Positions 35,928 to 59,900 of a stretch of DNA of 64,000 nucleotides are shown here, piece after piece; the first letter of the stretch is position 1; every line of letters starts with the position of its first letter. The position numbers and the translations under genes were made by a program. A model generated the notes under the pieces. It ran no database searches. It was not told the DNA's origin and was given only the letters and a program-made list of their open reading frames with translations. Source of the stretch: Antedon mediterranea. Its lineage: Eukaryota > Animalia > Echinodermata. Location: the NCBI RefSeq assembly GCF_964355755.1, contig NC_092672.1, forward strand, positions 1,984,001-2,048,000. Reading direction: 5' to 3'.

Positions 35928-36293
35928 TGCTTGTTGTTCGCATCACAAATTGATTAACGTATATATCATGTCGTGTCAAACGCAATAAAGGTCTTAATGT
36001 GATAATAAAAGTACTGAAATACCCACTTTCCTTCAAATTTCCCGGAATGAGTTAATTGATGTAGGACCAGAATTCCCTTTTCTCGCGCGGTGTACATTCC
36101 TTCCCATCATACATTTCTTTGTTGACAAAATGTTCAACTTCTTCCGGGGTTAAGTTATTAAAAACACATCGAGTCATAACAATCAGAAGAAAGAACTGCA
36201 TGTGCTAGAGAGAGATGCTCTATTATACCTCTCTGTTTGATTTATTTTGGTTAAATCATTACCTAAATTGAAATTGTTGCCACTTCGAAGGAA
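35928..36293. promoter_or_regulatory. Putative bidirectional promoter (ICE2-like / TRMT44)
   Basis: Divergent start codons are only ~366 bp apart. The gap has ETS-like CCGGAA/CTTCCGG sites (~36042, ~36141) and an E2F-like TTTCTCGCGC (~36079). Confidence 0.55.
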
Positions 36294-39200
36294 ATGTTAA
36301 AGATGAATTTAAATTTGTTTGATTTCAAATGGAATTTAATCGAAACAAATAATAGTTGTTCTTGTAGTTTTAATGACTTTTGTAAAGCTGTGGATGTGTG
36401 GCTCATGAAACCTCATGTTTTGAATAGACGAATCTGTACATCTCAAATGTTATGGAGAAAAGAGATTCCAAACACGAAATTATTAACATTTCTAGAAGGC
36501 TGTATAAATTCTGATGCAGAATGTACAGCGGTACAAGACAATTCTAGCAATGACAGTAAATGTGTTGAATGTTGTCTCCGCAAACTTTTACCACGTAACA
36601 GAAGAAATGAAACTGTCAATGAAATTATTGTTATTGGTATGAACAAATTGCTAAATGTTGTCATGGTGATCAAAATGAAATTACTTTATTTAAAGTTATT
36701 TTCACACAAGAATAAGATACTACTTTTTACAATTATTCCAATAACTTTCAATTTTTTTTCAGATAATTCATCAGCAACTGTTATATTTATTCCTCTGGAA
36801 AACCCGAGTGCGTCAATACCATCTTTGGGTTGCGAGAATCTAATAAACAATACAGGTTACAAGATAGAGTTTAACGAAAGTGATCATAGGTATTAAAAAG
36901 ACCTTATACAATAACATACAATTTTAAAAATATATTTACCGGCTTATCTACACTATCAAACTTTGTGACAAAAAAATGCCCATAATGGACATGATGATGT
37001 CATATCAATACCATATTTGGGCACATCACACTTTTTTTTGTCAAACTAGTTTGATAGTGTAGACAGAGCTTTATGCTATACCCAATTTTTTTTAAACCCA
37101 TTTTTGGTTGGTTTTTTTCATAACAAAATCAAAGGTACTTAAATTATGATGATGATGACAGTGTGATCAGAATTTTTGAAAAAATAATAACTAAATTATG
37201 ATAAAATAAAACATTTTATTTTTAGCCTGAAATTGTTCGTTGGACAAGACTATAGCATCTCCGCCACAAGTAGTTTTGCACGACCTTCTATACCGTGGTT
37301 GAAAAATCAACTGTTGCCAAAATTGATAAAGTGGGCCACCGAAAACAATGAAGATTCTGGCAACCAATTTACATCCTTAGTTGCTATGGACAAATACAGC
37401 AAGTTGTACGCCGAACTGAAGCAAAAATATGGTGCCAAGTTTGTAAAGGTAAATTTATTTCTACGATGGATGAACTATTTGTTGTGCGAGTTAAATTAAT
37501 TAAAATCTTTTACAACTTGGAGAGTTAATAAACTTATAAAAGTGTGGCACTCTTTTCCTTTCAAGTATGTTTTCGTAAAAGTTCATAAATTTCTACTTCT
37601 ATTCTTAATATTTAATTTTCGTTTGGTCTTTAAGCTGTGGACAGAGGTGACTGATCCCCAAAAATTTGTTTATGAAGATGTTGCCATAGCAGCATACATC
37701 CTCACGTTGTGGCGGCAGGAAACGGACGAGCTAGGGTTAACGACCCCACAGTCTTTCATTGATCTTGGATGCGGTAATGGATTATTAGTTCATATTCTGA
37801 CTTGCGAAGGAGTAAGTGTACAGAGGTACATAGTAATATATCTGATAAATAAAAGACAACAGCATCCAACTAAAAATGTTAGTTATAGAAGCTGAGCCTA
37901 AACAGCGTATGCTGACAATCTTGATAAGTTATGATAAGTGTTTGTGTGTATACTAGTACACCGGGGTAACCCCTACTCATCTCGAAAGATGTACTAGGTG
38001 TTCATGAGCCAGATGTGTACACTGGACCTATGGTTTATAGTCTTTTTCCGAGAAGACTCGTTCTACCACAAGAACCATGGAGCGAGTAAGGCTCGAATCC
38101 TTACAAAGGTATTACGGTTCTTCTGTCTTAACCGCTTGGCCACTCACTCGCTAAAACAGTACATAACCTACACCCCTGGAATCTCAATGTGACCAACCAC
38201 CAAGCTAACATTTACTCATACTAGTAGTAAATTCATACATCTACAGTAATGACTTTGATTTGTAAAAGATTTCTTAATTTTTAAATTCTGTTTTTTTTAG
38301 CATCGTGGAAAAGGAGTTGATTTACGCAAAAGGAAAATATGGGATCTGTATGGAGAAGAAACTTGTTTAGAAGAATCTGCTATCACTCCATCAGACAGTA
38401 ATCTATTCCCAGAATATGATTGGCTAATTGGTAACCATTCAGATGAGCTGACTCCATGGATACCAGTTATTGCTTCCAGGTCAGGTCAAGAGAAATTCTA
38501 AAGCTCTTTATTCATTCCTCACTGTGAGTGTGAGAAAAATATCTCAAAATGTAACATTCAGCAATAAATCAAAATAACTGCTGTATTTTGTCATTTATTT
38601 TGTAGGTCATCTTTCAACACTAGATACTTTGTTCTACCGTGCTGTTTTCACGATTTTAATCGCAAGTTTGCACGCGTTAACTCAAACCAAGGGCAGTACA
38701 GAGCGTATCTAGATTTTGTGTTTGAGATCGGCCAAATATGCGGTTTTACAGTTCTTGAAGACAGGCTGCGAATCCCATCAACTAAAAGGGTTTGTTTAAA
38801 AATGTTGAAAAAATTAAAATAGCTAAACTATGAATGATTATGATTGTAGAAAAAGACAGTCAGATTGTCATTAGCAAAATAAAAACAAATCATCTCAAAC
38901 AACAAGATCAACAAATTAAATACCAATAAATCATCAAGAAACACTTTTTTAAAGGAATCAATTTTTGGAGGTGGAGTTTTCAGAAAAATGATCATCATAA
39001 CACAGCACAATAGTGTCTGCTTTTAGGATAGTTGTTTACTATTCTACTTCATACTATATAGATTCATTCTTTCTTAGATATGCCATGTTGGAAAAACCCG
39101 TACATACAAACAAGAAGAACAAAAGAAAATTGATTCAAAGATAAAAGAACTTATTGAAAAAAGGTCATCCACAAAGAAAACTGATTATTCAAATAATATG

Positions 39201-40376
39201 CAAGTTATTTGTGAATCAGAGTCGAGTGATTCATATAGGATAAAGAGAGAACTGGACGAGACGCAAAACGTTAGTTGCCAAAAGATACAACGTATCGATC
39301 AACATGATAAAACAACTTGTGGTGACGATTCAAAGAATTGGGTTCAGGGTTTCACAGCACGGGAAAAGGTAGAACGTGTTAGAAACTGTGCTACAGTCTG
39401 TCGAGATCTCAGACAAGAAATAGTCAATAAAGTTGCCTTAAAGTTACTTGAAGAGGGTGGAGTGCAGCTAAGAAGTGATACTCTAGTGAAAGATACCAGT
39501 CTTACTGACAATGATAGTCTTGATGACACTCCAGCAAGTGCCACTCCTGCGACTGACACTCACAGTTTTGAAGATGACACTCAAACTGTTGTAAAAGAAT
39601 GGAGGAGAGGAGGTACAAATAATCATAATTTGGAATAAATACACTACCATAATTTACTTGCAATTACTAGAGAATATTGCGAACTCTCTCCCAAAACCAG
39701 CATTTTTGTAACGGTCCAAATGTCCAAATTCTTTCCTACTATTCAAAATAAAATCAGACTCTGGGAAACCAGGAAATTGTCAAAAGATGATCAATGCAAT
39801 TGAGGCTTAGAATAAATTAACAAATTCTAATAAAATGTTTCTTCAAATACGATCATGGATATTGTTCATGAAGTTCAGACTCTCTTTAAAATGCCTTGAC
39901 ATTTGAAGGTATTTTTTGTTCTTCCTTAGGTGAACTCTATCTATCGGCAGTCGCGAGTTTTCTTGGCTCTGATACTTTGAAGAAACTAAAGCAAGAATGT
40001 GGGGGTTTGAAAACTCTCTTGAAAAATGCTAACCAAGTTTTTGAAGGTCAGTTTGAATTATTTTCCATAATGTAAATAATTAAAACAAGTATTATTTAAG
40101 AAAGTGGCCATGCTGTTACTTTCTACATTTAAACTGTTTTTGCATTACTTTTCAGTTTCTGGCAATACTGTTAAAATCCGTGATTGGGCAAACCGTGAAA
40201 ATGAACCTGGCAAAGCACATGCATCTCTCAAGAATATACAAGATAAGGAATTATTATTTAAAACGAAACATTGCTGGTTTCATAGCAACCATCCAGATGG
40301 ATGCCCGCGTAAAGATCACACCTGCCCATTTGCTCATGGTGATAATGATTTAAGGGAAAGGGCTACTTTTAAGTAA
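36294..40376 (+). CDS. TRMT44: tRNA (uracil-O(2)-)-methyltransferase Trm44, 9 exons
   Basis: Exons 36294-36636, 36763-36889, 37226-37448, 37635-37811, 38301-38479, 38606-38789, 39078-39612, 39930-40046 and 40156-40376. Motifs: TDPQKFVYEDVAIAAY, SAM-binding FIDLGCGNGLL, IGNHSDELTPWIP, FVLPCCFHDF, LRIPSTKR, and a C-terminal CCCH finger CWFHSNHPDGCPRKDHTCPFAHG. Confidence 0.95.
37945..38150 (-). mobile_element. Deu/Nin-domain SINE copy in TRMT44 intron 4
   Basis: Reverse complement match to the same family. Confidence 0.75.
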
Positions 40377-40624: not shown

Positions 40625-43600
40625 TTACATACTTTCGATGATAGATCTGCTTCGTACAACTGATTGGTTCTGTAAGAAAAAAACAAACAACTTATAACTT
40701 TTCTAAATTGTCTAAAGTTGTTAATGTTTCGCACGTTACCTAAAGTTTTCTAAAGTCCGCAAGTTTTCTAAAGTTTCCCAAGTTTTCGGAAGTTTTCCAA
40801 GTTTTCTAATGTCTCCCAAGTTTTCTAAAGTCTCATGTTTTCTGAAGTCTCCCAAGTTTTCTAAAGTCTCCCAATTCTTTTTTAAAGTTGGAAAAGTTTT
40901 ATAAAATAATCCTATTGTTTTCCATAAAGTTTCAGAAGTTTTCTAAAATAATGAATCTCGTACACAAATTCTGAAAATATCCCAAGATCCACGAGATTCG
41001 CACACAATCTGGAAGTCCCAAAAGGCCCGTTATAAATTAAACAACAAGCTTCTTTAGTGATATTCCAACATTTTTATGAATTAAATCGAGATACTGTATA
41101 TGATTTGTATGATAAATTTTTCTATTACATACCTGCATTTGGTTGGCTGATATAATGCTCTTGTTATTCATACGATCTACGGAACTATCGTTAGTTTTCC
41201 ACGGCATATAGACGGTATACGATTGCGGATACTTTGCTATGTTTGCCATGTACTTTTTGTTTAACTGTAAATCAACAGAGATGCATTAACCACTATGATT
41301 TACTATAATGACATTAAACAGTTTTCGAAATAGTACGCACTGACAATTATCATAAGTTTCTAAAAAATGAAAATTGTATAAGAACTATAAGTTGCATACT
41401 CGCGCGCGCACAATACATTATTTAAAGTTTGGTTTGTGTCTGAGATCACAATAGCAAGGGATTCGAAACTAGTATGATTTTCTTTTGTGTTGCACTTGCC
41501 GACAGTCTCGACGCCGTGGGCATCATTATGTCAACTTGCTGGGCTTAATCTCATTGGTTATCAGTGACTCCGTGACTTTGCGCCCGCGCAGTTTTATTAG
41601 TAGAAAATCAGTGATCCACAAAGAAAGTTTGCGAGAGAATCTCGCGGCGAATACGCCGATTAATGCACATGAATCCCTGTTAATAATACTTGTCTCAGTT
41701 AGTGTTGAGGACCCCAAGAGCACACGGGCGCTGGAAATATGATGGAATATATTAAAATAAAATAAATTGTAGAATGCAATAAATGACGCACACGCGTGCG
41801 ACTCAAGAGTGGTAATGACAAATTAAAAGCGATAATTCCAATGATCCATCGCTTGCGGCCGGCAGTCCATACGTTGCGACCCAATGAATAGTGACACAAA
41901 CCCTCTCAAAACGTACAGTGTTACTACACACACAACTTTTATAATAATGGTTGATAAAACAATAAAGTTTTTTTTTTTTTTTTTTTATTCAGTTGTCAAC
42001 CAACAGCGATGAAACCGCCACTAACAGGTTGAATAATAAATTGTAAACAATTAGAAACAATTAAGTTCATTGTGTATTGTTACGTCATCGTTGCTGCAAA
42101 CAATCAACCATCAAACATTCCATTTGTTTCAAACATTATGTACAATTTTGTCTGTGCGTGTTTTGTCAACATTAACAAAAAGATACCAATGCTTACCTCC
42201 CATTCGTGTTCCCATTTTAGATGGCTATAGTGTGCCTCTTTAGAGAAGATCCGCTTCAGTATAGCTTGATTTTCGTGAGTGACCCGCAGTAATTCTCGCT
42301 GACGCTTCGTTTTATTCAAACTTTAAAAAGAGATACTGGACATGAAATAATGACACGCAACTTCGACGAAATAATAAGAATGAATAAAAGCGTGTTATTG
42401 TTACGGATCGCATTCTACTCGTGAAAGCTATCTCACGACTGCACCTGGTTATTTACATACTTAGTGACGTCATTTCATAATAAATGATAAATCACGTATT
42501 GGATGAGGTTGTGGCAATTAAAATAAGGATATTATTATTATTAAAATATGATTCAAATTGTTAAAAAATAAGCTTTAAAGATGAATCATGAATAAATGTG
42601 TGAACACAAAAAAAAATATGAAAAAAAAAAACTATTTAACATAGCGAAATTGATCGTTAAAAAAAAGAATTGTGTTTGGCCATATCGTTCGGGCTACCAA
42701 TCGCATTCTATTCATGACCGCTTTCCCGTTACTACTCCACGTGGGAACTTTTGCGTTTTTCGAGTTACTCTCAGGAACTATAATATGTATTGGCATATTG
42801 ATGAAGTTTTTTTTATTAAGATTTTGTTTTGAAAATGCTACTTTAAAATGTAAAAAGAATGAAATAAAAGACAACAATAGTTCTTTTGAAAATTGAGGCA
42901 TTTGCCTATTTGAAGTAAAAAAAAATAAAAAAATAAAAGAATTGTGTTTGACCATATCGTTCGGGCTACCGATCGCATTCTACTCATGACCGCTTTCCCG
43001 TTAATACTCCACGTGGGAACTTTTGCTTGCTGTGTTGCCACCCTGGGCCAGTACGTTCCTCCTTAGTCAACCTGGTTGTCCATGCCTCCACTTGGCCAAC
43101 CATATCGACGCCGAGTTTAACGTGGACGTTCAATCGACATAGAACAACGACCGACACGATTCCCGAACTCATGCCATCCAACAATCCCGGCTTCCCGAGT
43201 CACTGGATTACAGACGCACGCCACAACGCCCAGCCGACAGAAACCAATTAATTAAGCACCTCGTTATTTACATACTGAATTTACATACTGAGTGACGTCA
43301 TACACGTCATCGAATTATCGAAAGGTCACTGGGTCGATTCGTTTGATTTTACGCTCAGCGCTGATGTATATTGAGATAGCTTTGTATAAAGAATTTTCTG
43401 CAAACATGGCTGCAATAAAAATAATGAAATAACATATGTATTTAGGCCTACTAGTAAAGTTAAAATAAAAAAAAACGGCACTAGATCGAGTTGTTACTTT
43501 TACGCTCAGGGACTATAATATGTATTGGTATATTGATAACGTTTTTCTATTAAGAATTTTTTTTGAAAATTCTACTTTAAAATGTAAAAATAATGAAATA

Positions 43601-46600
43601 AAAGACAATAATACTTAATAGTTCTTTTAAGATTGAGGGACGGGGCCTATTTCAAGTTCGTCCAAAAAAAAAAAAAAAAGAAAAAAAGAATTGTGTTTGG
43701 CCATATCGTTCGGGCTACCGATCGAATTCTACTCATGACCGCTTTCCCGTTACTACTCCGCGTGGGAACTTTTGCTTGCTGTGTTGCCACCCTGGGCCAG
43801 TACGTTCCTCCTTAGTCAACCTGGTTGTCCATGCCTCCACTTAGCCAACCATATCGACGCCAAGTTGTTTAACGTGGACGTTCAATCGACATAGAACAAC
43901 GACCGACACGATTCCCGAACTCATGCCATCCAACAATCCCGGCTTCCAGAGTCACTGGATTACAGACGCACGCCACAACGCCCAGCCGACAGAAACCAAT
44001 TAATTAAGCGCCTCGTTATTTACATACTGAATTTACATACTGAGTGACGTCATTATTCACGTCATCGAAATATTTAAACGTCACTAGATCGAATCATTTA
44101 CTTTGACGCTCAACGCCGACGTATATTAAGGAGGGTTTTCTATAAAAAAATTTCTAAAAATGGTTGCATTAAAAATAACGAAATAACATATGTATTTGCT
44201 ACTAAAGTTAAAATAAAAAACGTCACTATATCGAGTTGCTGCTTTTACGCTCAGGGACTATAATATGTATTGGCATATTGATGAAGTTTTTTTATTAAGA
44301 TTTTGTTTTGAAAATGCTACTTTAAAATGTAAAAAGAATGAAATAAAAGACAAGAATAGTTCTTTTGAAAATTGAGGCATTTGCCTATTTGAAGTAAAAA
44401 AAAAAGAAAAAATAAAAGAATTGTGTTTGGCCATATCGTTCGGGCTACCGATCGTATTCTACGAATGACCGCTTTCCCGTTACTACTCCACGTGGGAACT
44501 TTTGCTTGCTGTGTTGCCACCCTGGGCCAGTACGTTCCTCCTTAGTCAACCTGGTTGTCCATGCCTCCACTTGGCCAACCATATCGACGCCGAGTTTAAC
44601 GTGGACGTTCAATCGACATAGAACAACGACCGACACGATTCCCGAACTCATGCCATCCAACAATCCCGGCTTCCAGAGTCACTGGATTACAGACGCACGC
44701 CACAACGCCCAGCCGACAGAAACCAATTAATTAAGCACCTCGTTATTTACATACTGAGTAACGTCATACACGTCATCGAATTATCGAAATGTCACTGGGT
44801 CGATTCGTTTGATTTTACGCTCAGCGCCGATGTATATTGAGATAGCTTTGTATAAAGAATTTTCTGCAAACATGGCTGCAATAAAAATAATGAAATAACA
44901 TATGTATTTAGGCCTACTAGTAAAGTTAAAATTTAAAAAAATGTCACTAGATCGAGTTGTTACTTTTACGCTCAGGGACTATAATATGTATTGGTATATT
45001 GATAACGTTTTTCTATTAAGAATTTTTTTGGAAAATTCTACTTTAAAATGTAAAAATAATGAAATAAAAGACAATAATACTTAATAGTTCTTTTAAGATT
45101 GAGGGACGGGCCTATTTCAAGTTCGTCCAAAAAAAAAAAAAAGAAGAAAAAAAGAATTGTGTTTGGCCATATCGTTCGGGCTACCGATCGCATTCTACTC
45201 ATGACCGCTTTCCCGTTACTACTCCACGTGGGAACTTTTGCTTGCTGTGTTGCCACCCTGGGCCAGTACGTTCCTCCTTAGTCAACCTGGTTGTCCATGC
45301 CTCCACTTGGCCAACCATATCGACGCCGAGTTGTTTAACGTGGACGTTCAATCGACATAGAACAACGACCGACACGATTCCCGAACTCATGTCATCCAAC
45401 AATCCCGGCTTCCGGAGTCACTGGATTACAGACGCACGCCACAACGCCCAGCCGACAGAAACCAATTAATTAAGCACCTCGTTATTTACATAGTGAATTT
45501 ACATACTGAGTGACGTCATTATTCACGTCATCGAAATATTTAAACGTCACTAGATCGAATCATTTACTTTGACGCTCAACGCCGAGGTATATTAAGGAGG
45601 TTTTTCTATAAAGAATTTTCTACAAATGGATGCAATAAAAATAATGAAATAACATATGTATTTGCTACTAAAGTTAAAATAAAAAAAGTCACTATATCGA
45701 GTTGTTGCTTTTACGCTCAGGGACATATGTATTAGCATATTGATGAAGTTTTTTTTTATTAAGATTTTGTTTTGAAAATGCTACTTTAAAATGTAAAAAG
45801 AATGAAATAAAAGACAATATTAGTTCTTTTGAAAATTGAGGCATTTGCCTATTTGAAGTAAAAAAAAAATAATAAAAAAAAAATTGTGTTTGACCATATC
45901 GTTCGGGATACCGTTCGCATTCTACTCATGACCGCTTTCCCGTTACTACTCCACGTGGGAACTTTTGCTTGCTGTGTTGCCACCCTGGGCCAGTACGTTC
46001 CTCCTTAGTCAACCTGGTTGTCCATGCCTCCACTTGGCCAACCATATCGACGCCGAGTTTAACGTGGACGTTCAATCGATATACAACAACGACCGACACG
46101 ATTCCCGAACTCATGCCATCCGACAATCCCGGCTTCCAGAGTCACTGGATTACAGACGCACGCCACAACGCCCAGCCGACAGAAACCAATTAATTTAGCG
46201 CCTCGTTATTTACATACTGAATTCACATACTGAATGACGTCATTATTCACGTCATCGAAATATTTAAACGTCACTATAAGATCGAGTCATTTACTTTGAC
46301 GCTCAACGCCGAGGTATATTAAGGAGGTTTTTCTATAAAGAATTTTCTACAAATGGATGCAATAAAAATAATGAAATAACATATGTATTTGCTTCTAAAG
46401 TTAAAATAAAAAACGTCACTATATCGAGTTGTTGCTTTCACGCTCAGGGACTATAATATGTATTGGCATATTGATGAAGTTTTTTTTATTAAGATTTTGT
46501 TTTGAAAATGCTACTTTAAAATGTAAAAAGAATGAAATAAAAGACAAGAATAGTTCTTTTGAAAATTGAGGCATTTGCCTATTTGAAGTAAAAAAAAAAA

Positions 46601-49600
46601 AAATAAATAAAGAATTGTGTTTGACCATATCATTCGGGCTACTCCACGTGGGAAGTTTTGCTTGCTGTGTTGCCACCCTGGGCCAGTACGTTCCTCCTTA
46701 GTCAACCTGGTTGTCCATGCCTCCACTTGGCCAACCATATCGACGCCGAGTTTAACGTGGACGTTCAATCGATATACAACAACGACCGACACGATACCCA
46801 AACTCATGCCATCCAACAATCCCGGCTTCCAGAGTCACTGGATTACAGACGCACGCCACAACGCCCAGCCGACAGAAACCAATTAATTAAGCGCCTCGTT
46901 ATTTACATACTGAATTTACATACTGAGTGACGTCATTATTCACGTCATCGAAATATTTAAACGTCACTAGATCGAGTCATTTACTTTGACTCTCAACGCC
47001 GAAGTATATAAGGAGGTTTTTCTATAATGAATTTTCTAAAAATGGCTGCATTAAAAATAATGAAATAACATATGTATTTGCTTCTAAAGTTAAAATAAAA
47101 AACGTCACTATATCGAGTTGTTGCTTTTACGCTCAGGGACTATAATATGTATTGGCATATTGATGAAGTTTTTTTTTTATTAAGATTTTGTTTTGAAAAT
47201 GCTACTTTAAAATGTAAAAATAATGAAATAAAAGACAACAATAGTTCTTTTGAAAATTGAGGCATTTGCCTATTTGAAGTAAAAAAAAAATAAGAAAAAA
47301 AAAGAATTGTGTTTGGCCATATCGTTCGGGATACCGATCGCATTCTACTCATGACCGCTTTCCCGTTACTACTCCACGTGGGAACTTTTGCTTGCTGTGT
47401 TGCCTCCCTGGGCCAGTACGTTCCTCCTTAGTCAACCTGGTTGTCCATGCCTCCACTTGGCCAACCATATCGACGCCGAGTTTAACGTGGACGTTCAATC
47501 GACATAGAACAACGACCGACACGATTCCCGAACTCATGCCATCCAACAATCCCGGCTTCCAGAGTCACTGGATTACAGACGCACGCCACAACGCCCAGCC
47601 GACAGAAACCAATTAATTAAGCGCCTCGTTATTTACATACTGAATTTACATACTGAGTGACGTCATACACGTCATCGAATTATCGAAATGTCACTGGGTC
47701 GATTCGTTTGATTTTACGCTCAGCGCCGATGTATATTGAGATAGCTTTGTATAAAGAATTTTCTGCAAACATGGCTGCAATAAAAATAATGAAATAACAT
47801 ATGTATTTAGGCCTACTAGTAAAGTTAAAATAAAAAAAACGTCACTAGATCGACTTGTTACTTTTATGCTCAGGGACTATAATATGTAGTGGTATATTGA
47901 TAACGTTTTTCTATTAAGAATTTTTTTGGAAAATTCTACTTTAAAATGTAAAAATAATGAAATAAAAGACAATAATACTTAATAGTTCTTTTAAGATTGA
48001 GAGACGGGGCCTATTTCAAGTTCGTCCAAAAAAAAAAAGAAGAAAAAAAGAATTGTGTTTGGCCATATCGTTCGGGCTACCGATCGCATTCTACTCATGA
48101 CCGCTTTCCCGTTACTACTCCACGTGGGAACTTTTGCTTGCTGTGTTGCCACCCTGGGCAAGTACGTTCCTCCTTAGTCAACCTGGTTGTCCATGCCTCC
48201 ACTTAGCCAACCATATCGACGCCGAGTTGTTTAACGTGGACGTTCAATCGACATAGAACATCGACCGACACGATTCCCGAACTCATGTCATCCAACAATC
48301 CCGGCTTCCAGAGTCACTGGATTACAGACGCACGCCACAACGCCCAGCCGACAGAAACCAATTAATTAAGCGCCTCGTTATTTACATACTGAATTTACAT
48401 ACTGAGTGACGTCATTATTCACGTCATCGAAATATTTAAACGTCACTATAAGATCGAGTCATTTACTTTGACGCTCAACGCCGAGGTATATTAAGGAGGT
48501 TTTTCTATAAAGAATTTTCTACAAATGGATGCAATAAAAATAATGAAATAACATATGTATTTGCTACTAAAGTTAAAATAAAAAACGTCACTATATCGAG
48601 TTGTTGCTTTTACGCCCAGGGACTATAATATGTATTAGCATATTGATGAAGTTTTTTTTTATTAAGATTTTGTTTTGAAAATTCTACTTTAAAATGTAAA
48701 AAGAATGAAATAAAAGACAATATTAGTTCTTTTGAAAATTGAGGCATTTGCCTATTTGAAGTAAAAAAAAAATAATAAAAAAAAGAATTGTGTTTGGCCA
48801 TATCGTTCGGGATACCGTTCGCATTCTACTCATGACCGCTTTCCCGTTACTACTCCACGTGGGAACTTTTGCTTGCTGTGTTGCCACCCTGGGCCAGTAC
48901 GTTCCTCCTTAGTCAACCTGGTTGTCCATGCCTCCACTTGGCCAACCATATCGACGCCGAGTTTAACGTGGACGTTCAATCGATATACAACAACGACCGA
49001 CACGATACCCAAACTCATGCCATCCGACAATCCCGGCTTCCAGAGTCACTGGATTACAGACGCACGCCACAACGCCCAGCCGACAGAAACCAATTAATTT
49101 AGCGCCTCGTTATTTACATACTGAATTCACATACTGAATGACGTCATTATTCACGTCATCGAAATATTTAAACGTCACTATAAGATCGAGTCATTTACTT
49201 TGACGCTCAACGCCGAGGTATATTAAGGAGGTTTTTCTATAAAGAATTTTCTACAAATGGATGCAATAAAAATAATGAAATAACATATGTATTTGCTTCT
49301 AAAGTTAAAATAAAAAAACGTCACTATATCGAGTTGTTGCTTTCACGCTCAGGGACTATAATTTATGTATTGGCATATTGATGAAGTTTTTTTTATTAAG
49401 ATTTTGTTTTGAAAATTCTACTTTAAAATGTAAAAATAATGAAATAAAAGACAATAATACTTAATAGTTCTTTTAAGATTGAGGGACGGGCCTATTTCAA
49501 GTTCGTCCAAAAAAAAAAAGAAGAAAAAAAGAATTGTGTTTGGCCATATCGTTCGGGCTACCGATCGCATTCTACTCATGACCGCTTTCCCGTTACTACT

Positions 49601-52600
49601 CCGCGTGGGAACTTTTGCTTGCTGTGTTGCCACCCTGGGCCAGTACGTTCCTCCTTAGTCAACCTGGTTGTCCATGCCTCCACTTGGCCAACCATATCGA
49701 CGCCGAGTTGTTTAACGTGGACGTTCAATCGACATAGAACAACGACCGACACGATTCCCGAACTCATGCCATCCAACAATCCCGGCTTCCAGAGTCACTG
49801 GATTACAGACGCACGCCACAACGCCCAGCCGACAGAAACCAATTAATTAAGCGCCTCGTTATTTACATACTGAATTTACATACTGAGTGACGTCATTATT
49901 CACGTCATCGAAATATTTAAACGTCACTAGATCGAGTCATTTACTTTGACTCTCAACGCCGAGGTATATAAGGAGGTTTTTCTATAAAGAATTTTCTAAA
50001 AATGGTTGCATTAAAAATAATGAAATAACATATGTATTTGCTACTAAAGTTAAAATAAAAAACGTCACTATATCGAGTTGTTGCTTATTACGCTCAGGGA
50101 CTATAATATGTATTAGCATATTGATGAAGTTTTTTTTATTAAGATTTTGTTTTGAAAATGCTACTTTAAAATGTAAAAAGAATGAAATAAAAGACAACAA
50201 TAGTTCTTTTGAAAATTGAGGCATTTGCCTATTTGAAGTAAAAAAAAATAAGAAAAAAAAAGAATTGTGTTTGGCCATATCGTTCGGGATACCGATCGCA
50301 TTCTACTCATGACCGCTTTCCCGTTACTACTCCACGTGGGAACTTTTGCTTGCTGTGTTGCCACCCTGGGCCAGTACGTTCCTCCTTAGTCAACCTGGTT
50401 GTCCATGCCTCCACTTGGCCAACCATATCGACGCCGAGTTTAACGTGGACGTTCAATCGACATAGAACAACGACCGACACGATTCTCGAACTCATGCCAT
50501 CCAACAATCCCGGCTTCCAGAGTCACTGGATTACAGACGAACGCCACAACGCCCAGCCGACAGAAACCAATTAATTAAGCACCTCGTTATTTACATAGTG
50601 AATTTACATACTGAGTGATGTCATACACGTCATCGAATTATCGAAACGTCACTGGGTCGATTCGTTTGATTTTACGCTCAGCGCCGATGTATATTGAGAT
50701 AGCTTTGTATAAAGAATTTTCTGCAAACATGGCTGCAATAAAAATAATGAAATAACATATGTATTTAGGCCTACTACTAAAGTTAAAATAAAAAAAAAAC
50801 GTCACTAGATCGAGTTGTTACTTTTACGCTCAGGGACTATAATATGTATTGGTATATTGATAACGTTTTTCTATTAAGAATTTTTTTTGAAAATTCTACT
50901 TTAAAATGTAAAAATAATGAAATAAAAGACAATAATACTTAATAGTTCTTTTAAGATTGAGGGACGGGGCCTATTTCAAGTTCGTCCAAAAAAAAAGAAG
51001 AATTGTGTTTGGCCATATCGTTCGGGCTACCGATCGCATTCTACTTATGACCGCTTTCCCGTTACTACTCCGCGTAGGAACTTTTGCTTGCTGTGTTGCC
51101 ACCCTGGGCCAGTACGTTCCTCCTTAGTCAACCTGGTTGTCCATGCCTCCACTTGGCCAACCATATCGACGCCGAGTTGTTTAACGTGGACGTTCAATCG
51201 ACATAGAACAACGACCGACACGATTCCCGAACTCATGCCATCCAACAATCCCGGCTTCCAGAGTCACTGGATTACAGACGCACGCCACAACGCCCAGCCG
51301 ACAGAAACCAATTAATTAAGCGCCTCGTTATTTACATACTGAATTTACATACTGAGTGACGTCATTATTCACGTCATCGAAATATTTAAACGTCACTAGA
51401 TCGAGTCATTTACTTTGACTCTCAACGCCGAGGTATATAAGGAGGTTTTTCTATAAAGAATTTTCTAAAAATGGCTGCATTAAAAATAATGAAAAAACAT
51501 ATGTATTTGCTACTAATGTTAAAATAAAAAACGTCACTATATCCAGTTGTTGCTTTTACGCTCAGGGACTATAATATGTATTAGCATATTGATGAAGTTT
51601 TTTTTATTAAGATTTTGTTTTGAAAATGCTACTTTAAAATGTAAAAAGAATGAAATAAAAGACAACAATAGTTCTTTTGAAAATTGAGGCATTTGCCTAT
51701 TTGAAGTAAAAAAAAAATAAAAAATAAAAGAATTGTGTTTGACCATATCGTTCGGGCTACCGATCGCATTCTACTCATGACCGCTTTCCCGTTAATACTC
51801 CACGTGGGAACTTTTGCTTGCTGTGTTGCCACCCTGGGCCAGTACGTTCCTCCTTAGTCAACCTGGTTGTCCATGCCTCCACTTGGCCAACCATATCGAC
51901 GCCGAGTTTAACGTGGACGTTCAATCGACATAGAACAACGACCGACACGATTCCCGAACTCATGCCATCCAACAATCCCGGCTTCCAGAGTCACTGGATT
52001 ACAGACGCACGCCACAACGCCCAGCCGACAGAAACCAATTAATTAAGCGCCTCGTTATTTACATACTGAATTTACATACTGAGTGACGTCATACACGTCA
52101 TCGAATTAACGAAATGTCACTGGGTCGATTCGTTTGATTTTACGCTCAGCGCCGATGTATATTGAGATAGCTTTGTATAAAGAATTTTCTGCAAACATGG
52201 CTGCAATACAAATAATGAAATAACATATGAATTTAGGCCTACTAGTAAAGTTAAAATAAAAAAAACGTCACTACATCGACTTGTTACTTTTACGCTCAGG
52301 GACTATAATATGTATTGGTATATTGATAACGTTTTTCTATTAAGAATTTTTTTGGAAAATTCTACTTTAAAATGTAAAAATAATGAAATAAAAGACAATA
52401 ATACTTAATAGTTCTTTTAAGATTAAGGGACGGGGCCTATTTCAAGTTCGTCCAAAAAAAAAAGAAGAAAAAAAGAATTGTGTTTGGCCATATCGTTCGG
52501 GCTACCGATCGCATTCTACTCATGACCGCTTTCCCGTTACTACTCCACGTGGGAACTTTTGCTTGCTGTGTTGCCACCCTGGGCCAGTACGTTCCTCCTT

Positions 52601-55600
52601 AGTCAACCTGGTTGTCCATGCCTCCACTTGGCCAACCATATCGACGCCGAGTTGTTTAACGTGGACGTTCAATCGACATAGAACAACGACCGACACGATT
52701 CCCGAACTCATGCCATCCAACAATCCCGGCTTCCAGAGTCACTGGATTACAGACGCACGCCACAACGCCCAGCCGACAGAAACCAATTAATTAAGCGCCT
52801 CGTTATTTACATACTGAATTTACATACTGAGTGACGTCATTATTCACGTCATCGAAATATTTAAACGTCACTAGATCGAGTCATTTACTTTGACTCTCAA
52901 CGCCGAAGTATATAAGGAGGTTTTTCTATAATGAATTTTCTAAAAATGGCTGCATTAAAAATAATGAAATAACATATGTATTTGCTACTAAAGTTAAAAT
53001 AAAAAACGTCACTATATCGAGTTGTTGCTTTTACGCTCAGGGACTATAATATGTATTGGCATATTGATGAAGTTTTTTTTTTATTAAGATTTTGTTTTGA
53101 AAATGCTACTTTAAAATGTAAAAATAATGAAATAAAAGACAACAATAGTTCTTTTGAAAATTGAGGCATTTGCCTATTTGAAGTAAAAAAAAAAAATAAG
53201 AAAAAAAAAGAATTGTGTTTGGCCATATCGTTCGGGATACCGATCGCATTCTACTCATGACCGCTTTCCCGTTACTACTCCACGTGGGAACTTTTGCTTG
53301 CTGTGTTGCCACCCTCGGCCAGTACGTTCCTCCTTAGTCAACCTGGTTGTCCATGCCTCCACTTGGCCAACCATATCGACGCCGAGTTGTTTAACGTGGA
53401 CGTTCAATCGACATAGAACAACGACCGACACGATTCCCGAACTCATGCCATCCAACAATCCCGGCTTCCAGAGTCACTGGATTACAGACGCACGCCACAA
53501 CGCCCAGCCGACAGAAACCAATTAATTAAGCGCCTCGTTATTTACATACTGAATTTACATACTGAGTGACGTCATTATTCACGTCATCGAAATATTTAAA
53601 CGTCACTAGATCGAGTCATTTACTTTGACTCTCAACGCCGAAGTATATAAGGAGGTTTTTCTATAATGAATTTTCTAAAAATGGCTGCATTAAAAATAAT
53701 GAAATAACATATGTATTTGCTACTAAAGTTAAAATAAAAAACGTCACTATATCGAGTTGTTGCTTTTACGCTCAGGGACTATAATATGTATTGGCATATT
53801 GATGAAGTTTTTTTTTTATTAAGATTTTGTTTTGAAAATGCTACTTTAAAATGTAAAAATAATGAAATAAAAGACAACAATAGTTCTTTTGAAAATTGAG
53901 GCATTTGCCTATTTGAAGTAAAAAAAAAAAATAAGAAAAAAAAAGAATTGTGTTTGGCCATATCGTTCGGGATACCGATCGCATTCTACTCATGACCGCT
54001 TTCCCGTTACTACTCCACGTGGGAACTTTTGCTTGCTGTGTTGCCACCCTCGGCCAGTACGTTCCTCCTTAGTCAACCTGGTTGTCCATGCCTCCACTTG
54101 GCCAACCATATCGACGCCGAGTTTAACGTGGACGTTCAATCGACATAGAACAACGACCGACACGATTCCCGAACTCATGCCATCCAACAATCCCGGCTTC
54201 CAGAGTCACTGGATTACAGACGCACGCCACAACGCCCAGCCGACAGAAACCAATTAATTAAGCACCTCGTTATTTACATACTGAATTTACATACTGAGTG
54301 ATGTCATACACGTCATCGAATTATCGAAACGTCACTTGGTCGATTCGTTTGATTTTACGCTCAGCGCCGATGTATATTGAGATAGCTTTGTAATAAAGAA
54401 TTTTCTGCAAACATGGCTGCAATAAAAATAATGAAATAACATATGTATTTAGGCCTACTACTAAAGTTAAAATAAAAAAAAACGTCACTAGATCGAGTTG
54501 TTACTTTTACGCTCAGGGACTATAATATGTATTGGTATATTGATAACGTTTTTCTATTAAGAATTTTTTTTGAAAATTCTACTTTAAAATGTAAAAATAA
54601 TGAAATAAAAGACAATAATACTTAATAGTTCCTTTAAGATTGAGGGACGGGGCCTATTTCAAGTTCGTCCAAAAAAAAAGAAGAATTGTGTTTGGCCATA
54701 TCGTTCGGGCTACCGATCGCATTCTACTCATGACCGCTTTCCCGTTACTACTCCACGTGGGAACTTTTGCTTGCTGTGTTGCCACCCTGGGCCAGTACGT
54801 TCCTCCTCAGTCAACCTGGTTGTCCATGCCTCCACTTGGCCAACCATATTGACGCCGAGTTTAACGTGGACGTTCAATCGATATACAACAACGACCGACA
54901 CGATTCCCGAACTCATGTCATCCAACAATCCCGGCTTCCAGAGTCACTGGATTACAGACGCACGCCACAACGCCCAGCCGACAGAAACCAATTAATTAAG
55001 CACCTCGTTATTTACATACTGAATTTACATACTGAGTGACGTCATTATTCACGTCATCGAAATATTTAAACGTCACTAGATCGAGTCATTTACTTTGACT
55101 CTCAACGCCGAGGTATATAAGGAGGTTTTTCTATAAAGAATTTTCTAAAAATGGTTGCATTAAAAATAATGAAATAACATATGTATTTGCTACTAAAGTT
55201 AAAATAAAAAACGTCACTATATCGAGTTGTTGCTTATTACGCTCAGGGACTATAATATGTATTAGCATATTGATGAAGTTTTTTTTATTAAGATTTTGTT
55301 TTGAAAATGCTACTTTAAAATGTAAAAAGAATGAAATAAAAGACAACAATAGTTCTTTTGAAAATTGAGGCATTTGCCTATTTGAAGTAAAAAAAAAAGA
55401 AAAAATAAAAGAATTGTGTTTGACCATATCATTCGGGCTACCGATCGCATTCTACTCATGACCGCTTTCCCGTTACTACTCCGCGTGGGAACTTTTGCTT
55501 GCTGTGTTGCCACCCTGGGCCAGTACGTTCCTCCTTAGTCAACCTGGTTGTCCATGCCTCCACTTGGCCAACCATATCGACGCCGAGTTTAACGTGGACG

Positions 55601-56596
55601 TTCAATCGACATAGAACAACGACCGACACGATTCCCGAACTCATGCCATCCAACAATCCCGGCTTCCAGAGTCACTGGATTACAGACGCACGCCACAACG
55701 CCCAGCCGACAGAAACCAATTAATTAAGCACCTCGTTATTTACATACTATGACGTCATCATCATACGATAGGTTTTTCTATAACAAATTAAATAAGGAAC
55801 TACAATACAATATAGGCCTAGTATAATTTAGTAAAATTTAAGGCTACATAAACACTAAGGCCCGTATTAGTACATAGCCTGGTGAGTGAAAGAAAGCTCC
55901 TTCACCATCGTAATTCTTAAAGGAACTTTTTTATTTTTTATTTTAATCAATTTCTGATTTCATCCCCCAGTTACAACAATAATACCACACCCTCAATCAA
56001 GACACACCTTTTCTGTTCGTAGTCATTGTAATTGTCAACACGCCCTCTTGTTCGCATAATGTAACACATCTTTTCCAGGAGAATCCGATTATCTCGTTCA
56101 ATAATTGCTGTTCGTTCCTCTTCCATTTGCAGCTTTTTTAGTTTCAAATGTAGATGCATGTATATGTGTGGGGGTCGATTGTCAATTACTGCTTGCGCTA
56201 TCAAAACAATGTTATTGTTATTCTTTTTACAAATTGATTAAAGATCGATACAATTTAGAAAGTCAGTGGCTAAGAATATCTAGCCCTACCAGTAGTACTA
56301 GGTGGCCTACAACAGGTTACTTAAGCTCTGTTATGTCAAACAAGTTTGACGAAAAAACTGTGTTGTGCCCAAATATGGTAGTGATATGATGCCATAGTGT
56401 CCATATATGGGGCGCATCACATTTTTTTTTCAACATAAAGTTTGAGACAGAGTATGTAGACAGAGCTTTAAACATAAACAATACATTAATTACCATTCTG
56501 AACTTTTTGCCGATGCCTGTCGAACCGACTTTGGTCCCATCTTTGCTTGAGTAATTTGTTATTTGCCGGTGTGATGGGCTGATACGCTCGATGCAT
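40625..56596 (-). CDS. CFAP97D2: CFAP97 domain-containing (Hemingway/KIAA1430 family, CFAP97D1/D2-like) sperm axonemal protein, 5 exons
   Basis: Exons 56596-56494, 56197-56008, 42320-42197, 41264-41133 and 40669-40625 (last exon less certain) join in frame to MHRAYQPITPANNKLLKQRWDQ...AQAVIDNRPPHIYMHLHLKLKKLQMEEERTAIIERDNRILLEKM...SLNKTKRQRELLRVTHENQAILKRI. The D1 versus D2 assignment is uncertain. Confidence 0.88.
40695..40950. repeat. Degenerate short-period tandem repeat (AAGTTTTCTAAAGTCTCCC)
   Basis: Repeated aagttttctaaagt motif in CFAP97D intron 4. Confidence 0.75.
42667..42754 (-). pseudogene. 3' fragment of 7SL RNA (array edge)
   Basis: Only the last ~88 nt of the RNA, fused directly to mid-spacer sequence; no Alu 5' part or promoter. 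Confidence 0.85.
42917..42938 (-). terminator. Pol III oligo-T terminator of 7SL copy 1 (an equivalent follows every copy)
   Basis: A-runs on + (T4 to T10+ on -) directly follow the RNA 3' end ACAATTC. Confidence 0.85.
42939..43234 (-). ncRNA. RN7SL: SRP RNA (7SL) copy 1, 296 nt
   Basis: The reverse complement reads GCTGGGCGTTGTGGCGTGCGTCTGTAATCCAG...GATATGGTTGGCCAAGTGGAGGCATGGACAACCAGGTTGACTAAGGAGGAACGTACTGGCCCAGGGTGGCAACACAGCAAGCAAAA...ACAATTC then T-run. It is collinear with metazoan 7SL: Alu 5' domain with UGU, helix 6 GGAG loop, helix 8 GNRA loop, and CAGG/AGCA SRP54 loop. Confidence 0.95.
43688..43986 (-). ncRNA. RN7SL: SRP RNA (7SL) copy 2, 299 nt (+AAC variant)
   Basis: Same motifs as copy 1, with a 3-nt insertion. 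Confidence 0.93.
44418..44713 (-). ncRNA. RN7SL: SRP RNA (7SL) copy 3, 296 nt
   Basis: Same motifs as copy 1; upstream CRE altered to TAACGTCA. Confidence 0.93.
45154..45452 (-). ncRNA. RN7SL: SRP RNA (7SL) copy 4, 299 nt (+AAC)
   Basis: Same motifs as copy 1. Confidence 0.93.
45881..46176 (-). ncRNA. RN7SL: SRP RNA (7SL) copy 5, 296 nt
   Basis: Same motifs as copy 1; several helix-5 substitutions shared with copy 9. Confidence 0.9.
46612..46869 (-). pseudogene. SRP RNA (7SL) copy 6 with 38-bp internal deletion
   Basis: Reads cgggctac|tccacgtg. 38 bp were lost between CTAC microhomologies, removing much of the 3' strand of helix 5. Confidence 0.85.
47304..47599 (-). ncRNA. RN7SL: SRP RNA (7SL) copy 7, 296 nt (helix 8 stem mismatch)
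   Basis: GUG changed to GAG next to the GCAA loop (tgcctccctg at 47401). Confidence 0.88.
48050..48348 (-). ncRNA. RN7SL: SRP RNA (7SL) copy 8, 299 nt (+AAC)
   Basis: Same motifs as copy 1, with a few substitutions. Confidence 0.9.
48785..49080 (-). ncRNA. RN7SL: SRP RNA (7SL) copy 9, 296 nt
   Basis: Same motifs as copy 1; carries variants of both copy 5 and copy 6. Confidence 0.88.
49531..49829 (-). ncRNA. RN7SL: SRP RNA (7SL) copy 10, 299 nt (+AAC)
   Basis: Same motifs as copy 1. Confidence 0.93.
50262..50557 (-). ncRNA. RN7SL: SRP RNA (7SL) copy 11, 296 nt
   Basis: Same motifs as copy 1; CRE altered to TGATGTCA. Confidence 0.9.
51000..51298 (-). ncRNA. RN7SL: SRP RNA (7SL) copy 12, 299 nt (+AAC)
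   Basis: Same motifs as copy 1. Confidence 0.92.
51730..52025 (-). ncRNA. RN7SL: SRP RNA (7SL) copy 13, 296 nt
   Basis: Same motifs as copy 1. Confidence 0.93.
52475..52773 (-). ncRNA. RN7SL: SRP RNA (7SL) copy 14, 299 nt (+AAC)
   Basis: Same motifs as copy 1. Confidence 0.93.
53210..53508 (-). ncRNA. RN7SL: SRP RNA (7SL) copy 15, 299 nt (+AAC; helix 8 CCAGG to CGAGG)
   Basis: Same motifs as copy 1, with a substitution in the SRP54-binding symmetric loop. Confidence 0.88.
53945..54240 (-). ncRNA. RN7SL: SRP RNA (7SL) copy 16, 296 nt (helix 8 CCAGG to CGAGG)
   Basis: Same motifs as copy 1; shares the helix 8 change with copy 15; CRE altered to TGATGTCA. Confidence 0.88.
54683..54978 (-). 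ncRNA. RN7SL: SRP RNA (7SL) copy 17, 296 nt
   Basis: Same motifs as copy 1, with several private substitutions. Confidence 0.88.
55411..55706 (-). ncRNA. RN7SL: SRP RNA (7SL) copy 18, 296 nt (first in transcription order, unique upstream flank)
   Basis: Same motifs as copy 1; CRE TGACGTCA at -44 to -51. Confidence 0.94.
55707..55757 (-). promoter_or_regulatory. 7SL upstream promoter (AT-rich/TATA-like segment plus ATF/CRE)
   Basis: TATGTAAATAA near -30 to -40 and TGACGTCA at 55750-55757. The same elements recur in the internal units, e.g. CRE at 43293-43300. Confidence 0.7.
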
Positions 56597-56900: not shown

Positions 56901-59900
56901 ATGGAAGAAATATCTAAAGAGTGTGATGGCAATAATATTCCGACAGATGAGTCGAAGAATATTCCAGTTGCAGAAACACAGAAAGCGGGGTCTGGGTTCA
57001 AACGTGCAACACTCGGTTTGACTGCTTTTAAAAAGGTAGGTTTAGCCTAACTAGGCCTAGGCCTAGGCCTAGGCCTAGACCTACCTAGGCCTAGGTCTAG
57101 GCTGTCTAGCTAGCCTTGTTGTAGTAGGCCTACTGGGCTAGGTTAAGCTCCTTTCTTTGTTATTGTGTAGGCCTCTAGGCCAAGCTGCTTATGTATAACG
57201 AACGGATCCATTATGTGTAGCCTATGTTCATGCATTGAGGCTCTAAAATATTAAAAACATTTATTTTTCAGATTGGAGAAAAGGTAAAAGTTGGAAATCG
57301 ATTGATGGGTAAGAAAGATAAATTGCCTGAAAATGATAGGTAAGACAAACGAGATAGGCCTACTAGCTCCTGAGCTTAAAAGCTAAGGCTAACCATCGGA
57401 CGGTAATTTCAAGGTGTAGGTTCAGTCAAATGAAAATAGGAACAAATTTGTAGTTCAGTAAATTCTAGAATTATGTATCAGCGGACTGTACAGCTCATTG
57501 CAAGAGAACATATATAATATTTCAATTTCATAAATAAGTGATATGATTACGTCACTAATGCGAATAATCCATTCTTATTTCTACCTAGTGATGAAATACA
57601 ACGCGTGTTTACGTTTGATGAATCGGCGGTAAGTGCAATCTAATGTAGTTTGTTGAAAGATATTTCGAACATTGTCCAAAATATTAAAATATTATATTGC
57701 GCATTGCACGCTATGTTTAATGAAATTGTCAGATTTAGGACGGCACTTGGACTTTGTGAAGAAAGGAAATGCATTTTGGTTGGTTGATATCACCCCTTTA
57801 AAGGCCAATTTACACAGACGATCGAGCGGTAACGGTAATAAAAAATATGTTATTTTTTATGAACATTTACACACAACTTAACACGGAGCGAACGGAAGGC
57901 TTCAACTCAGAAAAGACACAGATTCTACGTGGGACAAGCTACGTGATTTTTCGCTTAACGTTACCGCTCGTCTGTCTGTGTAAATTGACCTTTATACTCA
58001 ACACAAGGTGTTTCAATCCCATTTAATACTTAGCAGAAACTTGTATTTTCTTAATAAATCAACATTACACCTATATTGAAGCTACCAGTTGTGCGCACTA
58101 TAGAGGAAAAAGATGATGATACGGTGATGAAGAAGATTATGATAATGATGTCGGTAAAAATTACGCAATATGTTATCATCAAACTGAACGATTTACTTGA
58201 TTTTTATTATTAGGTGAAAGAGGGCGCATCGATATCCGAACTCTTTGCAAGTGACGAAGTTGAAGAAGATTTCAACGCCATCGTAGACCAGGATGATGAC
58301 CGTGTGGAAGCGTTCGTGTCGCAAGAGCTGGTGGGCCAGATGGTCGACAGCTACTTCTTCCGATCTTTTATATTCGCTGTTATTGTTGCCAATGCTGTTC
58401 TGATTGGCTTGCAGACCAATGAGGAACTCGTAAGTAGGCCTAAACATCATTTTACATTTTGAAACGTAACAAACCATTCATACTACCAATTTAGTGGAAA
58501 GTTAGCATTTATCTTCGAAATACAAAATAGCATTTTAGTGATCAGACAAAAGAAAGAGTTTGGCTAAGATAATATGAAACAGATTTAAATTCAAACTCAA
58601 TTCACAAATTAGTCTCAGTCTTAATGCTTGATTCACACCAAATCAAACCAAAGCGCACACAACTGACGGTTCAGATCCTAGAATTATACCATGTGTAAAT
58701 TAAATGACATTATATTACGGTAACATTTATATATCTTTTTACAACAGTCTAGAGACTATGCCAATCTGTTTTCTGTGTTCGATAACATTGTACTCACCAT
58801 ATTTGTGTGTGAATTAGCTTTAAAATGGTACAACGGATTCTTTATTTACTGGCGAGTCGGTTGGAATGTTCTAGACTTCTTCATTATACTGACACTTCTT
58901 CTTGGTCCAAGTAAGTGTAGACAAAGTCCCACCCTTCTCTGTCGTCATTATTGTCACACGCGCGCGTATATCGTTCCGCTTCAGTGTTTCATTCATGTTG
59001 ATCTTATTTCACTTTTTAGTAAATCTCTCAATTTTGTTTCTAATTGTTGTTGGATATTTCCACAGCATTGACGTTTCTTGGTAGCAGCAGAATCTTAAGA
59101 ATCTTACGAGTGCTAAGAGCTTTTCGAAGTCTTAGAAGGTAGGTGATACTCAGTGTTAGTGGAAAATAAATAATTACACCAAAATTGATTTAGACTTGTA
59201 GGCCTAAATGTCTACCAAACTTAAATTTGTTTCGCTTCTCCAATTCTGAGTAAGTTTTATTTTGTTGGTATTCTTTACAGTATTAGTGCATTAACGGGTC
59301 TTTCTGTAGTTGTTCAGACGATCTTTCAATCCGTTCCAGGTAGGTAAACAACTAAACGACGCGCAACGCAAGTAACGACGCGCAACGCACATAATATCAC
59401 TATCACAAAAATAGCAAACTGTCGATTGGTCGCCCTTACGTCATAAGACTTTAACTATTATTTTTCCAGATATGACCAACATTGCTCTTCTTTTGATTAT
59501 CATAATGTTAGTGTTGGGTGTTGCCGGTGTCTCACTATTCGGCAAAGATGTACCGAAACACTTCGGTGACATGACTGCAGGTAAAATTAAAACATTAACA
59601 CTGTATTAAACCGACAAATATGTCATTAATAATATACAACTAAAAAAGTAACTATAAATAAAACTATGTCTACACTATCAAACTAGTTTGACAAAAAAGT
59701 TTCATGTGCCCAAATGTGGTAGTGATATTCTTAAATATGATAGTGATATGACATCATCATGTCTATAGTTGGGCACATCGCATTTTTTTTGGCACATAAA
59801 GTTTGATAGTGTAGACAGAGATTAAGTTAAGAAATGACAACAACTTTAGGCCATGAGTGAGTTACAGAAGATATATTGATGTGCTTTAACGTGTACATTA

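Follow-up and report, generated by a model that had tools for sequence, protein, structure and literature searches.

In a 64-kb stretch of the Antedon mediterranea genome (contig NC_092672.1, positions 1,984,001–2,048,000, hereafter the window, with coordinates counted from its first letter), 18 genes for 7SL, the signal recognition particle (SRP) RNA, which guides secreted proteins to the endoplasmic reticulum, form a head-to-tail array at 42936–55706, all on the minus strand. Seven of them carry an additional AAC in the 5f internal loop of helix 5, which, judging from the 7SL sequences compared here, is an unusual variant. In terms of genome biology, this is a small RNA polymerase III (Pol III) array of an ordinary kind, undergoing turnover, and the +AAC genes are best explained as part of that turnover. 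It appears fairly probable that an AAC duplication created by slippage was amplified together with a two-gene repeat unit, is co-transcribed with the shorter form from the proximal promoter common to both, and persists because it is tolerated; its distal-site function would be normal or somewhat weaker.

Organization of the 7SL array

The genes were identified with the Rfam covariance model for Metazoa_SRP (RF00017), and parsing gave a repeat unit of approximately 0.73–0.75 kb. All 18 copies scored above the gathering threshold of 70 bits, at 113–222 bits. The array's 7SL genes have full Alu and S domains and a T-rich Pol III terminator; the Alu domain, helix 5, and helices 6 and 8 with their tetraloops are present in the alignments of copies 16, 18, and 4 and in the folds of copies 14 and 7. 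Parsing returned the same set of +AAC copies (2, 4, 8, 10, 12, 14, and 15) as the initial annotation of this DNA, and the same order of two spacer types after copies 1–17, namely X,Y,X,Y,Y,Y,X,Y,Y/X,Y,X,Y,X,Y,Y,X,Y. The gene lengths given there, 296 nt without and 299 nt with AAC, are not strict, as changes in the terminator shift the predicted ends: the predicted length is 302 nt for copy 12, 299 nt for the −AAC copy 17, and 293 nt for copy 5.

Copy 6 (46597–46869, minus strand, 113 bits) has a 38-nt deletion in the 3′ strand of helix 5e/5f and, from its sequence, is likely a pseudogene. Beyond copy 1, a truncated 19th copy, consisting of the 3′ 91 nt of the gene fused to the right-hand portion of a Y spacer, lies at 42664–42935 (minus strand), and a promoter relic with a single 13-bp unit and a cAMP response element (CRE) marks the array edge at 42441–42474 (minus strand). 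The terminal gene at the other end, copy 18 (55408–55757, minus strand), has an upstream flank shared with no other copy, in which the 13-bp unit occurs once and the CRE lies at −51 (55750–55757). It is the sole −AAC copy without a change at any position conserved at 90% or more, and may be the founder or main copy.

The AAC insertion in the 5f loop

The insert is an exact tandem duplication, with the duplicated AAC at 43864–43869 in copy 2 and at 45330–45335, 48226–48231, 49707–49712, 51176–51181, 52651–52656, and 53386–53391 in the other copies (all minus strand). The Rfam RF00017 alignment places it between model positions 117 and 118. When mapped to the numbering of PMC5224484, the insertion site would correspond to human A118/A119, and the model bulge at 112 to human G113. 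The placement in the helix 5 internal loop near the SRP68/72 contact (5f) that had been proposed earlier is therefore right by this alignment and numbering. In the 5f loop, A119 pairs with G232, A231 bulges toward the 28S rRNA, and SRP68 and SRP72 bind (PMC5224484), with the arginine-rich motif (ARM) helix of SRP68 and SRP72 contacting the loop (PMC5224484, PMC4615810). It is reported that G232 sits in the GTPase interface between SRP54 and the SRP receptor (SR) and helps delay hydrolysis (PMC8330425, PMC13588191).

With AAC, the predicted 5f internal loop changes from 1 × 2 to 4 × 2, the flanking helices are kept on both sides, and the folding energy is unchanged (−107.4 vs −107.6 kcal/mol, folds of copies 14 and 7). 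The A231 and G232 equivalents are kept in the +AAC copies. As an outgroup, 23 animal-type 7SL loci from metagenomes were used; L007 and L015 do not cover the 5′ strand of 5f, and none of the remaining 21 genes has an insertion at this site. An exact-motif scan of the metagenomes gave 0 loci. Conservation was counted over 19 outgroup genes, leaving out L007, L014, L015, and L019 and with L013 and L020 being near-duplicates.

A canonical 5f loop, with one A opposite A231/G232, was found in 8 of the 18 copies. The others are the seven +AAC copies with their 4 × 2 loop, copies 1 and 13 with U at the G232 equivalent, and copy 6, in which this part is deleted. The G-to-U change lies at 43004 in the −AAC copy 1 and at 51795 in copy 13 (minus strand), at a position that is G in 19 of 19 outgroup genes. 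This U is predicted to close the 5f loop and represents a second natural 5f variant in the array.

The two-gene repeat unit and its spacers

The initial annotation had proposed that an ancestral heterodimer of about 1.47 kb was amplified, and the parsed order, the spacer clades, and the spacing of the X ends all support this proposal. One higher-order unit of 1466 bp (43685–45150, minus strand) consists of a +AAC gene, a Y spacer, a −AAC gene, and an X spacer. X-type spacers (not assigned to a strand, like the other spacers) are located at 43235–43684, 44714–45150, 47600–48046, 50558–50996, 52026–52471, and 54241–54679. The Y type, for example at 43987–44414, is present in 10 full copies and holds an old internal duplication of about 140 bp (score 70 vs a shuffle maximum of 46). 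A recombinant spacer, s9 (49081–49527; spacers are numbered by the copy that they follow), is Y on its left and X on its right. Each spacer (e.g., 45453–45877) contains two diverged sub-repeats of about 140 bp, each beginning with a motif that resembles a CRE half-site.

Substitutions between X and Y amount to 13.6%, compared with 2.2–2.4% within one type, and the spacer tree separates the types into two clades with support of 100/100. The distance between X right ends is 1465–1481 bp in four of six intervals. The chance that X ends among 17 never adjoin is 0.075 for 6 ends or 0.017 for 7 ends, and the adjacency of +AAC genes gave P = 0.20. The higher-order unit of two genes therefore exists, but the array maintains it loosely.

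The association of spacers with gene forms was also recovered as first described: every X upstream region precedes a −AAC gene (6/6). Every +AAC gene has a Y upstream region (7/7, Fisher p = 0.035), and the X type forms the 3′ flank of 6/7 +AAC genes vs 1/10 others (p = 0.004), although these Fisher p-values overstate the evidence because the copies share descent. Four of the 11 genes with a Y upstream region (copies 5, 6, 9, and 17) lack AAC. The AAC is as tightly linked to the X 3′ flank as to the Y upstream region, as its position within a duplicated block predicts.

Proximal promoters

The two spacer types had further been read as two promoter types tied to two isoforms, a reading that the sequence does not support. 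There is no fixed X/Y difference between −1 and −65, near-identical Y regions precede both gene forms, and AAC is the sole fixed difference between the genes. The proximal region common to X and Y, from −1 to −66 (43235–43300, minus strand), consists of an AT-rich TATA-like stretch with a 13-bp direct duplication (43266–43291) and a CRE/ATF octamer (43293–43300). In mammalian 7SL genes, a TATA-like box is located near −30 and a CRE near −50 (−51/−44) (PMC7279448), and by analogy we infer a role for the CRE and TATA-like elements at this array. Fixed differences between X and Y begin at about −66, past both the TATA-like region and the CRE, and over the first 60 alignment columns the X–Y distance is 2.3–2.5%, the same as the distance within a type.

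Individual spacers point the same way: s10, before the +AAC copy 10, and s17, before the −AAC copy 17, differ in 1 of 410 columns, and s14, before the +AAC copy 14, and s6, before the −AAC copy 6, differ in 1 of 411. The 13-bp duplication, present in 16 of the 18 copies, shifts the CRE to −66, where all 11 upstream regions of the Y type have a perfect CRE, as do 3 of the 6 of the X type; in copy 18 it lies at −51. The X regions with a mutated CRE are those at 44760, s11 (50558–50996), and s16 (54241–54679), while all Y regions are intact. The 13-bp duplication was also considered as a feature specific to this species, an idea that was dropped as the single and the double form both occur in the related organism B (X7 records 19 and 20).

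Gene variation and array turnover

The AAC, in alignment columns 118–120, is the only fixed difference between the +AAC and −AAC gene classes. Diversity among the gene copies is 1.9%, near the 2.2–2.4% within a spacer type, and reaches 1.4% among +AAC copies vs 1.5–2.3% among −AAC copies. Of 29 single-nucleotide polymorphism (SNP) sites, 13 fall at conserved positions, vs 109 conserved positions among 299 overall (p = 0.32), both sides being inflated by positions inside the search motif, which are conserved by construction. Conserved positions are thus not avoided by SNPs, and purifying selection on each copy leaves no sign here. A further G, which all 18 of 18 outgroup genes have, is altered in 6 of the 18 copies; together with the two U changes at the G232 equivalent and the deletion in copy 6, this means that AAC is not alone in changing a conserved site in a third of the copies.

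Exchange between units has also occurred. Copy 15 (53207–53508, minus strand) has a 5′ half from a +AAC gene and a 3′ half like copy 16. Since it shares SNPs 193 and 272 with the −AAC copy 16, and since spacers s14 and s15 are identical, it represents an unequal crossover within the gene, between nt 120 and 193. Copies 5, 6, 9, and 17 combine two common SNPs just 5′ of the site with the lack of AAC on different Y subtypes, a sequence pattern that suggests gene conversion. The gene tree, from which copy 6 was left out, is mostly unresolved, with no starred fork.

Other samples and related organisms

The array was compared with contigs of eight of the 10 sequencing runs listed (X1, X2, X7, X9, X3, X6, X8, and X10). 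Two samples, belonging to two different studies, have contigs with X and Y spacers, at most one of these same-organism samples being possibly the source of the window. X1 covers 314 nt of X with 0 differences, and the X2 and X3 contigs hold both spacer types. X1 was considered as RNA and then treated as DNA-like, since it covers both spacers along their whole length. The occurrence of both spacers in two samples indicates that the X/Y dimorphism is not an artefact. The contigs show only the −AAC path, even X2 and X3, in which the left flank found in the window appears as loose ends. Since variants of this kind are lost from contigs, this absence carries no weight for +AAC in other haplotypes. 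In X10, the AAC site is not bridged by 31 letters on both sides.

Gene contigs of the related organisms B and C bridge the AAC site without AAC, which makes +AAC likely derived; in the region listed, the −AAC genes of B and C differ from the common form by two substitutions. For organism B, there are two alternative contigs of the spacer, of similar depth. One B contig is X-like at nine and Y-like at seven diagnostic sites, four spacer states are common to X and Y but absent from both B types, and the B types agree with X or with Y at two sites each way, all counted by hand from tables that omit some rows. On these sequences, no clear orthology links the spacer pairs of the two species as a trans-species X/Y pair.

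Origin and fate of the +AAC genes

The AAC duplication would have arisen, likely once, by slippage in the gene of an X-gene-Y unit. The +AAC form would then have risen to 7 of 18 copies through unequal crossing-over, probably as a passenger of the dimer and not by selection for a second isoform. Pol III would transcribe both forms together, using the same proximal elements. The RNA with AAC would fold normally outside the loop, keep A231/G232, and bind SRP9/14, 19, and 54, and its 4 × 2 loop may allow near-normal or somewhat weaker contact with SRP68/72, the ribosome, and the GTPases. Redundancy of copies would tolerate +AAC as it tolerates the other damaged copies of the array.

Several observations weigh against this explanation. 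No change at a position conserved at 90% or more was found in 3 of 7 +AAC vs 1 of 11 −AAC copies, and a perfect CRE precedes all seven +AAC genes and is lacking in three of the six X promoters. Just beyond −66 lies a second CRE half-site, a putative element, whose spacing is not the same in X and Y. The AAC-bearing genes lie on several Y subtypes, which makes +AAC about as old as the present amplification, and the X/Y split appears, from the spacer sequences, to be of roughly the same depth as that from organism B, which also has two spacer types. An insert in 39% of the copies, at a site that is strictly conserved in length (0/21 outgroup genes with an insertion) and functionally central (PMC5224484, PMC8330425, PMC13588191), would be unexpected if it were harmful.

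The possibility that the +AAC genes are a dead class appears unlikely, though it is the best of the alternatives. The RNA would be transcribed, but the enlarged loop would block remodeling by SRP68/72, so that it is degraded or never forms a working SRP, and the −AAC copies, above all copy 18, would supply the function. The absence of any insertion from the outgroup genes is consistent with such a defect, as is the binding of the SRP68 ARM helix and SRP72 at the 5f loop (PMC5224484, PMC4615810). The array also holds clearly broken copies (copy 6 and the relics), and the +AAC genes score 200–212 bits vs 201–222 for full-length −AAC genes. However, A231/G232, both flanking helices, and the overall fold are kept, and the +AAC copies are not more decayed than the −AAC copies, in either diversity or the share of clean copies.

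Less probable still are two selected SRP RNA isoforms, in which +AAC would alter either the contact with the ribosome or when GTP is hydrolyzed, and either the dimer would balance the forms or distal X/Y elements would regulate them separately. It is thus rather doubtful that the array encodes two SRPs, a standard one and one with a 5f loop three bases larger opposite G232 that times cargo handover differently. The insert does lie exactly opposite G232, which enters the SRP54–SR GTPase site and helps delay hydrolysis (PMC8330425, PMC13588191). Every +AAC gene has a Y upstream region with an intact CRE, and in this reading these genes might even provide much of the RNA. Zebrafish is reported to have SRP RNA variants that are stage-specific (bioRxiv 10.1101/869651), and organism B has two spacer types as well. 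Yet the spacer types of B do not map onto X/Y, and the zebrafish types lie on different chromosomes and are about 7% apart (bioRxiv 10.1101/869651). Within the array, the absence of fixed X/Y differences in −1 to −65, the use of the same Y region before both forms, the lack of any compensating or co-varying change in the genes, and the interleaving of forms that recombine within the gene argue against two selected isoforms.

Near-identical repeat stretches can be misassembled, and a collapsed repeat in this 12.8-kb stretch of near-identical units is a very improbable source of the +AAC class or the alternation, as the same 3-nt event recurs in seven copies on differing SNP backgrounds with consistent flanks and both spacers also occur in the contigs of the two samples, which come from separate studies.

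The 5f loop is the meeting point of the RNA with SRP68/72, the ribosome, and the SRP54–SR GTPase pair, and a natural insert in 7 of 18 copies provides a ready-made test of its tolerance. A working +AAC RNA would mean that the loop has more plasticity than one would expect from its conservation, whereas its exclusion would reveal a quality control of SRP assembly.

Neighboring features and other loci

TRMT44 (PF07757) exons are located at 36267–39635 on the plus strand and are identical to the annotated A. mediterranea protein P0001, with 179 of 179 residues (100%) matching in one exon; a PDB search with the TRMT44 exon gave no match. An Ion_trans (PF00520) exon at 58724–59068 (plus strand) may resemble a CatSper-type channel. 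A 92-bp tandem repeat of 17.6 copies with 97% matches occupies 27646–29257. Outside the window, the metagenome locus L017 contains two animal-type 7SL copies (590–904 and 1467–1672) about 880 bp apart and 97% identical, a spacing that indicates a further tandem 7SL array.

Comparison with known SRP RNA and Pol III gene systems

Neither a natural insertion in the 5f loop nor a 7SL array in a crinoid turned up in the literature searched, which lacks most subscription papers. The genes share with metazoan SRP RNA (RF00017) the Alu and S domains, the T-rich Pol III terminator, and an upstream CRE as in mammalian 7SL (−51 in copy 18; −51/−44 in mammals, PMC7279448). They differ in a 5′ strand of the 5f loop that is 3 nt longer in 7 of 18 copies and in a CRE moved to −66 in 16 of 18.

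Like the maternal and somatic SRP RNA genes of zebrafish, the array comprises clustered multi-copy genes with sequence variants, whereas the zebrafish types lie on different chromosomes, are about 7% apart, and show stage-specific expression (bioRxiv 10.1101/869651). In the feather star, the two forms are not at separate loci but interleaved, alternating within one array in the window; they share a common proximal promoter and are one insertion or deletion apart, with only columns 118–120 fixed instead of several fixed differences of about 7% over the Alu and S domains. Among the SRP RNA genes of Schistosoma mansoni, there are likewise several candidates, and point mutations in some of them may have functional effects, whereas the available parts of that report describe no tandem dimer and no 5f insertion (PMC2770079).

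5S rDNA arrays are likewise tandem Pol III genes with a conserved gene, diverged spacer classes, mixed blocks of variants, and mixed concerted and birth-and-death evolution (PMC5437419; see also PMC3215682 and PMC3123226). The same features are present here, with about 2% divergence among genes vs 13.6% between spacer classes, a period of about 1.47 kb, recombinant units (s9 and copy 15), and decaying copies (copy 6 and the edge relics). The feather-star array differs from 5S rDNA in that its gene is 7SL, that it is small, with 18 copies, and that one gene variant is tied to a position in the dimer.

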